Below, one piece after another: positions 9,614 through 44,939 of a stretch of 64,000 nucleotides of DNA. Position 1 is the stretch's first letter. Each line of letters starts with the position of its first letter. The notes beneath the pieces are model-generated. The model saw only the letters and a list, made by a program, of their open reading frames with translations, ran no database searches and had not been told where the DNA came from. Origin of the DNA: a virus; IMG/VR virus record IMGVR_UViG_3300024520_000050, positions 114,401 through 178,400 of that record. One strand, given 5' to 3'. A program made the translations under genes and the position numbers.

Positions 9614-10681
9614 CTAAAATGGTACGTCATCATTTGTTGGCTCCTCAACTTTAGTTTCACCTTCACTTGGAAGATCATCTATTGTTACTTCTTGGAAACT
9701 TAATGAATTACCCCAGAAAGATTTCCATGGATACTCTTCATGAGTCAAGTGCTCTACAGCTTTCTTGCTCAATTTAGATTCTCCCAATTTACTTCCTGCT
9801 ACTATAACATCATCATAGTTATTAGTACGATCAGTTATACGGAATGTTGCTTCAAATCCAACAGGAAATACTGTAAATGGAGCTAAAACATCGTGATAGA
9901 TTTTATCACCATCTTGGTTAGGACGTACTCCTAAGAATAATCCTAATGGGTTGTTGGCTCCATCTTTAGTAAAATACTCTTTACCTTCAAAGTCTTGACC
10001 GCTATCAGCCATTAACATGTTTAATGCAGTATACTCACCGTTGAAAATATTATCGATTACTTCAGTTGGATCTTCGCCCAATACAAAATCATCAAGACGA
10101 GTTGATTTAGCATCATCTTCATCAATGCGGTGTCTGTCCAAAGTAGACATTCTAAATACCAAATCATATAAAGCTACTTCTCCTTGACGAGCAACACGTG
10201 CTGTAGCAGCATTAATACGACGTAGAGGATCTTTTTCTGAATAAGCAGAATCTTCAGCCTGAGCCTTCAATACTTGCTTCTCCATTGATGCTTTACCTGA
10301 TAAAAGGATCCATCCATTTTGATTATGCGCATCGATAATTTGTGTTTTACCAGATGTCTTTCCAACCACTGGACGGTTAGAAATGTAGATTTTATAATCT
10401 ACGAATACTTCATCACTATAAACTGGTTGTTTAAGTTTCAATGTAGTATTTGGGTTAAATTTACAAAGCAATGAAACAACGCGATAGTCATTCTCTTTAA
10501 TTACACGAAGGTAATTAGGTTCTTTAACATCGTATTGTGCAGGGATCTCTTTAATTCTACGCAAGTCATCTGCGTTAGGATTAAACATGATTGGAGTTGC
10601 ATATACTCCACCTGTAAATGTTGCTTTATAATTGATTTGTGCTCTTTCTGAACTTTCTTTAGTTCTGTTAGTTGATCTCAT
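9614..10681 (-). CDS. Single-stranded DNA-binding protein (putative)
   Basis: Acidic C-terminal tail ending DDVPF; position in the replication module. Confidence 0.65.
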   Translation of the reverse strand: MRSTNRTKESSERAQINYKATFTGGVYATPIMFNPNADDLRRIKEIPAQYDVKEPNYLRVIKENDYRVVSLLCKFNPNTTLKLKQPVYSDEVFVDYKIYISNRPVVGKTSGKTQIIDAHNQNGWILLSGKASMEKQVLKAQAEDSAYSEKDPLRRINAATARVARQGEVALYDLVFRMSTLDRHRIDEDDAKSTRLDDFVLGEDPTEVIDNIFNGEYTALNMLMADSGQDFEGKEYFTKDGANNPLGLFLGVRPNQDGDKIYHDVLAPFTVFPVGFEATFRITDRTNNYDDVIVAGSKLGESKLSKKAVEHLTHEEYPWKSFWGNSLSFQEVTIDDLPSEGETKVEEPTNDDVPF

Positions 10682-42482: not shown

Positions 42483-42830
42483 ATCCTTTAAATAAGAAAG
42501 TTCTTCTTTCTATTCTTTTTCTTTCTTGCTACATTATCTTTTATAATCATTTCACCATAATCTTCTGTTTTACAGACAACTTCATGAGGATATATTCTAC
42601 CTCTTGTCCATAAACTTATATAAGGGTTCATTCTTGGAAAGTAATTTTTCCATACTCCACCTTTCATTCTTCTATACCATACGAACTTTTCAAACATAAG
42701 GAAGAAGAATATCCATTTAAGTGGTACAATAATAAAATAATATAATAATTTAATTTTTATGTTCTTCATTTTAATTTTTAACTTATTAGTGTTAGATTAT
42801 CATAATTAATTGATAATCAGTATGTTACTG

Positions 42831-42903
42831 CACGCAATGAAAGACTCGAACTTCCAACCTGCAGTTTTGGAGACTGCTGCTCTACCAATTGAGCTAATCA
42901 CGT
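42831..42903 (-). tRNA. trnW: tRNA-Trp(CCA)
   Basis: GCAGT-CTCCAAA-ACTGC; G73. Confidence 0.9.
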
Positions 42904-42962
42904 ATAAATAGGTAGAGAGTCATTAAGACCCTCTTTCAGTTGCCGAAGCTTATACCTATTTG

Positions 42963-43036
42963 TAGCCCTACCTGGACTCGAACCAGGGACCTTTCGCGTA
43001 TCAGGCGAACGCTCTAACCAACTGAGCTATAAGACT
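42963..43036 (-). tRNA. trnI: tRNA-Ile(GAT)
   Basis: TTCGC-CTGATAC-GCGAA. Confidence 0.92.
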
Positions 43037-43041
43037 ATCTA

Positions 43042-43335
43042 TTAAAATTCTGTAAATTGACAATGACCGTAGTAACCAAATATTTTATTAATTACATCAC
43101 ATTCATTCTCATTAATTTCTGTAATCCTAATATCTCTTAGTAACTCTTTACCATTTTCATATTCTACTTCTTCATTAGTACCAACACTAAATTCAAATGA
43201 TTCTTCATGTTTTTCTAATCTATTCTTATATTGAATCCAGTTCTCTTCATTCATTGTTGTAAAACCTATAAAATCTGCTTCATCTGCCCAATTACCTTCC
43301 CATTTAACTAGGAAGTATTTCTCTTCTTTACTCAT
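43042..43335 (-). CDS. Hypothetical acidic protein
   Basis: ORF in operon. Confidence 0.5.
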   Translation of the reverse strand: MSKEEKYFLVKWEGNWADEADFIGFTTMNEENWIQYKNRLEKHEESFEFSVGTNEEVEYENGKELLRDIRITEINENECDVINKIFGYYGHCQFTEF

Positions 43336-43862
43336 TTCTTCTTTTTCTTTTTACCTATTATAATAGCAGTCCATGTGTTTCCACCTAATTTAGGAAATGA
43401 TGTGAATTCTGCTTGCCAAGTTAAATCTTGTTCATTAATACTATTAACAAATGATTTAATAATACCTGCTCCAGTTTCTTTACCTCTAGCCATATTACGT
43501 CCACCTTTGATTAATAAACTAATCTTTACTTGATTCTTCTTGTCAATAAACTTAGTTGCATTTTTAACTCGATAACTTATATCATTATCACTTATGTCTA
43601 AACCTAATTGAATTGTTTTCAATTTAGTTTTTGATTTAGGTTTGTTATCTTTCTGTCGCTTTTTAGCTTCAAACTTCTTCTTTTTGATGTCATAAATTTT
43701 GCAAATCGGCATATCTAGATCACCATTCATAAGAACTAAATCTAAATTTCTTTCTTTTGCATAATTCAACGCATATTGTGAACCACAAGGTTCAGTAAAA
43801 TCAAGTGTATCCACAATTAGGACCATATGATATAATTGTACTACTTCTTCGTTAATCTTCAA
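43332..43862 (-). CDS. infC: Translation initiation factor IF-3 (divergent)
   Basis: INEE, AL..A...NLDLV, PICKIYD; C domain K.I.L...I...D....K.A.KF..K...VK.SL. Confidence 0.85.
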   Translation of the reverse strand: MKINEEVVQLYHMVLIVDTLDFTEPCGSQYALNYAKERNLDLVLMNGDLDMPICKIYDIKKKKFEAKKRQKDNKPKSKTKLKTIQLGLDISDNDISYRVKNATKFIDKKNQVKISLLIKGGRNMARGKETGAGIIKSFVNSINEQDLTWQAEFTSFPKLGGNTWTAIIIGKKKKKK

Positions 43863-44059
43863 TCTTTTAATTCTTTTAAGTATTTATCTAAATGTGTATA
43901 ATATAATTCTAATGCTTTTTCTCTATTCTTAAATCCTGATCTTTCACTATTTACTTCAATAGTAAATCCTGTTTTCCAACATTGTAATTTAATACTGTTT
44001 GTTGGATCAGGTCTAAAGGAAGACCATTCTAATTCTTTTCTGTATTCTTCTTTTGTCAT
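43859..44059 (-). CDS. Mini protein resembling release factor domain 3 but lacking the GGQ loop
   Basis: LEWSSFR-PDPTNSIKLQCWKTGFTIEVNSERSGFKNREKAL aligns to RF1 LRIDTFR[..GGQ..][32 protein letters not shown]. Confidence 0.65.
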   Translation of the reverse strand: MTKEEYRKELEWSSFRPDPTNSIKLQCWKTGFTIEVNSERSGFKNREKALELYYTHLDKYLKELKD

Positions 44060-44409
44060 ATTTCATATATTAACTCTTTATTATTCTCCCAAAAGTTACA
44101 TTTTTTATCATTCAATATTCTTTCATAATGAGAACAATATTCAATGGTTTTTAACTTCTGTTCTTCTTCATCAAAAACTTCTTTAGTTTTATAAATAGAT
44201 TTCATGCAGTATACATATTCTTCTGTTTTATCACACCATACTTGAGTATGAACTGTATCGATATGACTATGAAATGTGACAAATCCTTTGTTAGAGTTAC
44301 TTTTAACTTTAAATTCTTTGGTTATTGTTGTCCATTCTTCTCCATTATGAAGAAAGAATGGAAACTTACCTTTGCTTGTTCTTTTCATAATTATTATTTC
44401 TGATGGCAC
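44056..44409 (-). CDS. Hypothetical protein
   Basis: ORF in operon; true start may be ATG near 44388. Confidence 0.5.
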   Translation of the reverse strand: MPSEIIIMKRTSKGKFPFFLHNGEEWTTITKEFKVKSNSNKGFVTFHSHIDTVHTQVWCDKTEEYVYCMKSIYKTKEVFDEEEQKLKTIEYCSHYERILNDKKCNFWENNKELIYEI

Positions 44410-44564
44410 ATCTACCCACCTAACTTATACTGGTTAAGAAAAGTTATTGATGGGGTAGAACAGGTAAAGCCACTAACATTCACCCTGTGTTGTAGCATTA
44501 CAGTAAGCCTAGCGGAACTTAACCATAGTTCATAATACTTATTCACATGCTCATAATTTAATAG

Positions 44565-44647
44565 TGGGACCGGTAGGATTCGAACCTACGTACTCCAAGA
44601 AGACTGGATTTACAGTCCAGCGCTTTTAACCACTCAGCCACGTTCCC
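44565..44647 (-). tRNA. trnY: tRNA-Tyr(GTA)
   Basis: CTGGA-CTGTAAA-TCCAG; long variable arm. Confidence 0.92.
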
Positions 44648-44665
44648 AATTTGTTTATTTAATAG

Positions 44666-44750
44666 CGGAAGATGAGAGATTCGAACTCCCGGTGAGTTAC
44701 CCCACGCTGGTTTTCAAGACCAGTGCATTAAACCACTCTGCCAATCTTCC
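44666..44750 (-). tRNA. trnS: tRNA-Ser(TGA)
   Basis: CTGGT-CTTGAAA-ACCAG; long variable arm, G73. Confidence 0.92.
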
Positions 44751-44760
44751 TATTTAATAG

Positions 44761-44847
44761 CGGAAAGTAGTAGATTCGAACTACTGGTGCAATTACTCAC
44801 ACGCCGGTTTAGCAAACCGGTACCTTAAGCCACTCAGCCAACTTTCC
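44761..44847 (-). tRNA. trnS: tRNA-Ser(GCT)
   Basis: CCGGT-TTGCTAA-ACCGG; long variable arm, G73. Confidence 0.92.
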
Positions 44848-44855
44848 TATTAAAG

Positions 44856-44939
44856 AGTACATAATCGGATTCGAACCGACGTGAGCTATTAACTAATGGT
44901 TTTGCAGACCATCCTATTCGGCCACTCTAGCATATGTAC
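44856..44939 (-). tRNA. trnC: tRNA-Cys(GCA) with an atypical long variable arm
   Basis: ATGGT-CTGCAAA-ACCAT; U73; 15-nt variable region. Confidence 0.88.

Follow-up and report, generated by a model that had tools for sequence, protein, structure and literature searches.

A homologue of release factor domain 3 lacking the GGQ loop, encoded in overlap with an IF3 gene inside a phage tRNA island

The gene cassette and the surrounding tRNA island

The window (the whole stretch of DNA analysed, 64 kb in length) corresponds to the final part of a 178.4-kb IMG/VR record that was rated complete by CheckV and belongs to a phage with a G+C content of 31%. The gene of interest, whose product is referred to as P0001, occupies positions 43859..44059 on the minus strand, exactly as given in the initial annotation, and according to the sequence and the ORF list it consists of 66 codons with an ATG start and a TGA stop. 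All 20 tRNA genes identified in the window by ARAGORN and every ORF of at least 150 aa are situated on the same strand. The stretch was detected in four seawater DNA runs only, two of which were possibly its source, and none of the listed sequencing runs holding it were RNA runs. The contigs from the seawater runs that covered the 66-aa gene showed no differences and were therefore uninformative on selection.

The gene resembling a release factor (RF) is the second of four genes, each overlapping the next by 4 nt. The first gene of this cassette (44056..44409, minus strand) encodes a Cys/His-rich protein of 117 aa, or 110 aa when counted from the first ATG, and the sequence ATGA contains both its TGA stop and the ATG with which the RF-like gene begins. 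This ORF could not be assigned to any known family, as no match was obtained in Pfam, NCBIfam, PADLOC, or the Atlas, and its single-sequence fold was unusable (pLDDT 46). The third gene (43332..43862, minus strand) encodes a full-length phage IF3 of 176 aa and apparently starts at a TTG that runs into the TGA stop of the preceding RF-like gene (TTGA). The Pfam domains IF3_N and IF3_C were found at E about 1e-11, the TIGR00168 model (infC) scored 84.1 bits against a cut-off of 60 and covered profile positions 13–170 of 170, and phrog_9787 matched at E 1.2e-23; judged from these profiles, the protein is a genuine and complete two-domain IF3. The last gene (43042..43335, minus strand) encodes an acidic protein of 97 aa assigned to phrog_27815 (E 2.2e-6) and overlaps the IF3 stop by 4 nt. 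The cassette is flanked directly upstream by a block of tRNA-Tyr, tRNA-Ser, tRNA-Ser, and tRNA-Cys genes (44564..44939, minus strand) and directly downstream by the genes for tRNA-Trp and tRNA-Ile (42830..43036, minus strand), all predicted by ARAGORN. Additionally, the same program reported two unusual tRNA-like sequences outside the window, in the genome's structural half (G000:C1:24590-24663 and 10328-10419), one with a two-base anticodon and the other a 92-nt tRNA-Ala(CGC), which may be false positives.

When considering other functions related to termination and rescue, no codon-reading (PCRF) domain and no RtcB match were found across the 178-kb genome, so that the features of a PrfH-RtcB pair (domain 2/4 and an adjacent RtcB) were not observed. 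Likewise, the whole genome contained no Pth and no suppressor tRNA, and reading its stop codons as recoded gave no clear increase in open frames, while no PADLOC family matched the 66-aa protein or its neighbours. Three candidate explanations gained no support from these searches, namely a split release factor with the 117-aa ORF as its codon-reading domain (no PCRF match and no family or Atlas match), a link to stop-codon recoding or suppression (no suppressor tRNA and no open-frame gain in the whole genome), and a defence link (no PADLOC matches).

Homology to release factor domain 3 and the missing loop

The sole Pfam hit of the 66-aa protein was RF-1 (PF00472; E 1.1e-3, 19.3 bits), with residues 23–60 aligned to profile positions 34–72, a match confined to the region C-terminal to the GGQ position. 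RF-1 was the sole or top hit for P0001 and for each of its two relatives, P0002 and P0003, which are described below (E 1.1e-3, 5.7e-6, and 1.3e-5 for the three members). Although the Pfam gathering score of 35 bits was not reached by P0001 (19.3) or by the relatives (26.7 and 25.5), the E-values, at 1e-3 to 6e-6, remain significant, and as a sequence match the similarity exceeds chance. The top NCBIfam matches of the family were prfA, prfB, and prfH. When the three-sequence profile was compared to the PDB, release factors accounted for 29 of the 30 matches, and the lone exception was placed last (E 0.99).

The alignments with RF1 showed a single gap. Using hhalign, the three-member family matched RF1 domain-3 segments at 97.6% (E 2.6e-12), a profile comparison with the RF-1 domain having been named beforehand as a test of the proposed homology; residues 8–61 were aligned to RF1 columns 10–72 with one 9-column gap. 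The MAFFT alignment with four RF1 domain-3 segments likewise contained a single 9-column gap, situated exactly over S-G-x-G-G-Q-x-V-N. In both alignments, the segment ELEWSSFRP pairs with the RF1 strand preceding the GGQ loop, and SIKLQCWKTGFTIEVNSERSGFKNREKAL pairs with the two strands and the helix start that follow it. Gapped tblastn alignments spanning residues 9–63 were also obtained against metagenomic RF1 genes reading D-L-K-W-D-F-F-R-S-G-G-K-G-G-Q-N-V-N. Gly-Gly-Gln is absent from the entire 66-aa protein, and the 9-column gap spans the motif in all three members. The identity to RF1 domain 3 is 27–35%, the exact string F-K-N-R-E-K-A-L is common to the 66-aa protein and Saccharibacteria-type RF1, and two of the three members carry another residue in place of the Gln of the R-S-Q motif. 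The by-eye alignment on both sides of the catalytic loop and the loss of the SGAGGQHVN segment, both proposed from the sequence in the initial annotation, were thus reproduced by independent programs. Its description of the protein as similar to RF1/ArfB holds for the RF1/RF2-type domain 3 only. The ArfB model matched P0003 alone (E 0.014), ArfB required 97 residues to align with 63 of our model in the structural comparison, and both ArfB and ICT1 carry an inserted helix between strands 2 and 3 that is absent from the 66-aa protein.

The predicted structure agrees with the alignments. The AlphaFold2 model of the 66-aa protein (pLDDT 84.9, pTM 0.73) consists of a short helix, three strands, and a long helix, with the chain ending two residues past the latter; the predicted elements are a helix at residues 3–7, strands at 10–15, 22–27, and 32–36, and a helix at 42–64. 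Among the Foldseek rows shown for the PDB, 49 of 50 were RF-family chains, with a query-normalised TM of up to 0.81, a likeness to be read with the caveat that the model may lean on learned RF structures. An exhaustive structural comparison with approximately 48,000 chains placed five release factors first, i.e., RF1 (1zbt, Z 9.1), PrfH (Z 8.5), mtRF1 (Z 8.5), RF1 (6osk, Z 8.4), and RF2 (Z 7.8), in agreement with the fold expected when AlphaFold was suggested as a check. Model residues 1–66 span 75 residues of RF1 (6osk 213–287) and of mtRF1 (8oir 291–365), which corresponds to the same nine-residue difference as the sequence gap.

Compared to cellular release factors, the 66-aa protein shares the fold and strand order of RF1 domain 3 (then of RF2, PrfH, and mtRF1), while it lacks domains 1, 2, and 4 and the nine GGQ-bearing residues. 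In RF2, the catalytic loop comprises residues 245–258, with GGQ at 250–252 (PMC6742477). Since the corresponding stretch has lost nine residues here, peptidyl-tRNA hydrolysis is not expected. The prediction that the 66-aa protein is a catalytically dead homologue of RF domain 3 is therefore well supported by sequence, profile, and fold evidence alike, as is the earlier proposal of a mimic from which the GGQ loop was cleanly removed.

Relatives and GGQ-less proteins of other phages

The search for relatives covered 5.8 billion proteins by word index and 1.84 billion cluster representatives by a full phmmer scan. Only two relatives were recovered from the approximately 5.8 billion proteins, namely P0002 (68 aa, 82% identity) and P0003 (68 aa, 44%). 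Both lack GGQ and show the same gap as P0001, and each independently matches RF-1 and prfA best. The residues invariant in the three members include the core hydrophobics, P17 in the new turn, and, at the junction of strand 3 and the long helix, E39, S41, and K44–L50. In release factors, this junction loop and the GGQ loop together form the catalytic site (Kogure et al., PMC3950681). The net charge varies from about −3 to +8 across the three members by hand count; P0001 and P0002 are about neutral to acidic and P0003 is strongly basic.

No longer or fused relatives were found at E <= 1e-3. The IMG/VR scans returned no relatives, whether the query was the protein itself, the alignment of the family, the neighbouring IF3, or a DNA pattern for K-N-R-E-K-A-L, and the scans of metagenomes and GTDB genomes returned only ordinary GGQ-bearing RF1 or RF2 genes. 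When P0001 and P0003 were compared to cultured phages by tblastn, only chance matches or bacterial RF1 in contaminant contigs were obtained, and the matches H1 (antisense to an annotated gene) as well as H2 and H5 (both full RF1) were dismissed. The records MT835815.1 and MT835821.1 (“Bacteriophage sp.”, human faeces) contain a full-length bacterial prfA with typical bacterial neighbours and look like bacterial contigs filed as phage.

Stand-alone RF domains without GGQ are already known from other phages. In the ESM Atlas, many clusters of viral proteins of 69–75 aa are labelled as release-factor family. The Acinetobacter phages Acj9 (gp145), ZZ1 (gp148), AB1I1M-1, 133 (gp133), and Berthold (gp248) encode proteins of 76–78 aa that lack GGQ and are annotated as “RF-1 domain peptide chain release factor” or “putative peptidyl-tRNA hydrolase”, names that imply an activity these sequences probably lack. 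Like the 66-aa gene, four of these five are located in or beside tRNA arrays. In Berthold (L063:422-496) and AB1I1M-1 (L026:556-627), a tRNA with a CUA anticodon, which is of the amber-suppressor type and was called Pyl by ARAGORN, lies within approximately 1 kb upstream of the GGQ-less gene and has no counterpart in our phage. A tblastn search with the ZZ1 protein returned 138 phage records, and among those without GGQ were gp037 of Pseudomonas phage 73 and three Vibrio phage proteins. In the retrieved loci, the nine GGQ-less genes are situated at L024:2549-2779, L025:1501-1731, L026:1489-1722, L062:1177-1407, L063:1183-1419, L057:1195-1689, L058:1489-1737, L059:1495-1905, and L060:1489-1833, and most of the nine proteins carry a Trp in the replaced loop. 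Acj9 gp145, ZZ1 gp148, Berthold gp248, Pseudomonas phage 73 gp037, and Vibrio phage 249E41-1 P0254 are examples of phrog_20323 and its kin, each a stand-alone domain 3 without GGQ; phrog_20323 was matched by P0001 (E 1.5e-3) and P0002 (E 4.8e-5) and not by P0003.

Annotated GGQ-less “RF-1 domain” mini-proteins of Acinetobacter, Pseudomonas, and Vibrio phages are thus a known kind, from which the 66-aa family is set apart by a loop that is deleted rather than replaced, by a closer relationship to cellular RF1, and by its coupling to IF3. The other phage mini-proteins measure 76–164 aa, keep a loop of near-normal or greater length made of other residues, often including Trp, are only 9–26% identical to the 66-aa family, and have no IF3 neighbour. 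Because the hhalign match to RF1 (97.6%, with 27–35% identity) exceeds that to three Acinetobacter members (86%) and the identity to the phage mini-proteins, the sequences suggest a separate origin of the 66-aa family from a cellular prfA-type gene. Our literature search found no published work on GGQ-less RF-domain mini-proteins of phages. Phages are absent from the main survey of release-factor diversity (PMC6514570), and a study of mycobacterial tRNA arrays listed an RF-1 domain gene among the core genes of these arrays (PMC5966550). The gene for gp135 of the Mycobacterium prophage prophiT49-2 encodes a short RF-1 protein of 97 aa (L061:1513-1806) inside a phage tRNA array, as here, directly before an RtcB-like RNA ligase; in contrast to P0001, it keeps GGQ and is paired with RtcB in the manner of PrfH, whereas RtcB is missing from our phage.

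Proposed role and alternative explanations

The combination of lost chemistry, a retained domain body and junction loop, and a gene that travels with IF3 and tRNAs points to a binder of the translation machinery. The 9-residue deletion puts a tight Pro-containing turn where the GGQ loop would be and leaves the strand-3/helix junction (E-R/K-S-x-x-K-N-R-E-K-A-L) in place along with the three strands and the long helix. In the mechanism that we propose, the RF-like gene would be co-expressed with the phage IF3 through the stop/start overlap inside the tRNA island, and its product would act on the host translation machinery through binding and not catalysis. The retained domain-3 surface may dock where release and rescue factors place this domain, i.e., on the large subunit at the A-site side of the peptidyl-transferase centre, or it may compete for something else that recognises the same surface. 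The outcome would be a damping of host termination or rescue that favours phage translation. That the protein is a maintained, stand-alone, dead RF1-type domain 3, coupled to IF3 and binding the host translation machinery, is a reading in which we place an even measure of confidence and doubt.

Known proteins offer both precedents and a counterpoint for ribosome binding. ArfB/YaeJ, mitochondrial ICT1, and C12orf65 (mtRF-R) also consist of domain 3 without the codon-reading domains, but their GGQ is intact and they depend for binding on a basic C-terminal tail or a partner (PMC3950681). For the isolated GGQ domain of ArfB/YaeJ, with its tail removed, ribosome binding was below detection (PMC3950681). 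Of the roles suggested in the initial annotation (a block of the A site or of rescue factors, or titration of PrmC or a host defence sensor), this weakens the simplest, an A-site block. The 66-aa protein contains neither a basic C-terminal tail nor the inserted helix of ArfB and ICT1, and from its sequence it would have no tail or codon-reading domain to serve as an anchor; a common rRNA-binding surface is also not obvious in a family of such variable charge, and this speaks against ribosome binding. On the other hand, plant PrfB3 and mitoribosomal MRPS35 have lost the catalytic motif and persist in a non-catalytic capacity, either stabilising RNA or serving as a structural part of the ribosome (PMC5897788, PMC6514570). 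Both are large multi-domain eukaryotic proteins in comparison to the 66-aa phage protein, and MRPS35 and the inactive baeRF-1 families have been proposed as A-site occupants (PMC6514570).

The structural ranking also brings up a role away from the ribosome, in which the loop-free alpha-beta-beta-beta-alpha (dsRBD-like) module may bind structured RNA such as the phage tRNAs, their precursors, or a transcript end. Ranked after the release factors were the dsRBDs of Dicer, DCL4, and Staufen together with the hibernation factors HPF and RaiA, at Z 6–7.4, which is below the RF matches and in a range (Z 6–7) common among small alpha/beta folds. In InterPro, one RF-1 domain protein of a Vibrio phage is assigned to IPR014720, a dsRBD-type entry, and the gene lies amid tRNA genes; the strongly basic P0003 would suit such a function, whereas the neutral to acidic character of P0001 and P0002 is unusual for dsRBDs. 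A precedent is provided by PrfB3, a GGQ-less plant RF2 homologue that binds and stabilises the petB 3′ end (PMC5897788). The sequence similarity of our family is, however, specific to release factors, with no match to a dsRBD sequence family, and we regard RNA binding off the ribosome as rather unlikely. A retained domain surface with the chemistry removed could also describe a decoy for a reader of RF domain 3, such as PrmC, domain 2/4 of the release factor itself (the docking surface of the closed form), or a component of a host defence or toxin system directed at release factors, as sensor or as attacker. The location would fit, as counter-defence genes are frequent in phage tRNA islands; yet no PADLOC family was assigned to the protein or its neighbours, no defence system known to us acts on RF domain 3, and PrmC engages the GGQ loop segment in the RF1-PrmC structure, so its main handle is the very loop deleted here. 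Taken together, a decoy function seems decidedly doubtful.

The cassette itself could be read as encoding an accessory subunit that binds the phage IF3 or one of the other two cassette products, of 117 and 97 aa, and alters how IF3 handles the 30S subunit after termination and recycling. The stop/start overlaps linking the four genes, namely ATGA, TTGA, and a third one that is also 4 nt long, suggest coupled, stoichiometric expression, and the IF3 appears genuine and complete, but adjacency alone is weak evidence, and the other phage GGQ-less mini-proteins have neither an IF3 neighbour nor a shared neighbour family, which leaves this proposal a slim chance. Slimmer still is the chance that the gene is a decaying remnant of a captured prfA with no present function. 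The rarity of the family (three sequences in approximately 5.8 billion), the sub-threshold Pfam score, and the loss of the R-S-Q Gln in two of three members would be consistent with decay, but the gene has a clean start and stop and is coupled to both neighbours, no flanking traces of RF domains 1, 2, or 4 were found, and the fold is predicted with confidence. Since length, deletion, and fold are preserved at 44% identity, a decaying fragment is unlikely, and the family sequences argue for a maintained mini-protein and not debris. A broader version of the favoured binding role would extend it to several unrelated phage lineages (that of our phage, T4-like phages, Pseudomonas siphoviruses, and Vibrio phages), which would have independently converted a host RF catalytic domain into a non-catalytic trans-acting factor interfering with release or rescue on host ribosomes; here, together with IF3, it would redirect ribosomes between termination, recycling, and re-initiation. 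We consider this generalisation unlikely, although less so than the decoy.

Release factors are indispensable and have been examined in depth, but an entire class of phage proteins made from their catalytic domain without GGQ appears to be unstudied, and the database labels “release factor” and “peptidyl-tRNA hydrolase” attached to these proteins are probably wrong. The 66-aa family is a new and rare member of this kind, loop-deleted, coupled to IF3, and of likely independent origin. It is the most stripped-down example among those compared and therefore marks out the smallest surface to which the function can be ascribed, while the coupling to a phage IF3 provides a concrete link to translation control during infection. 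If such proteins do modulate termination or rescue, they would represent natural small inhibitors of that step and tools for its study.
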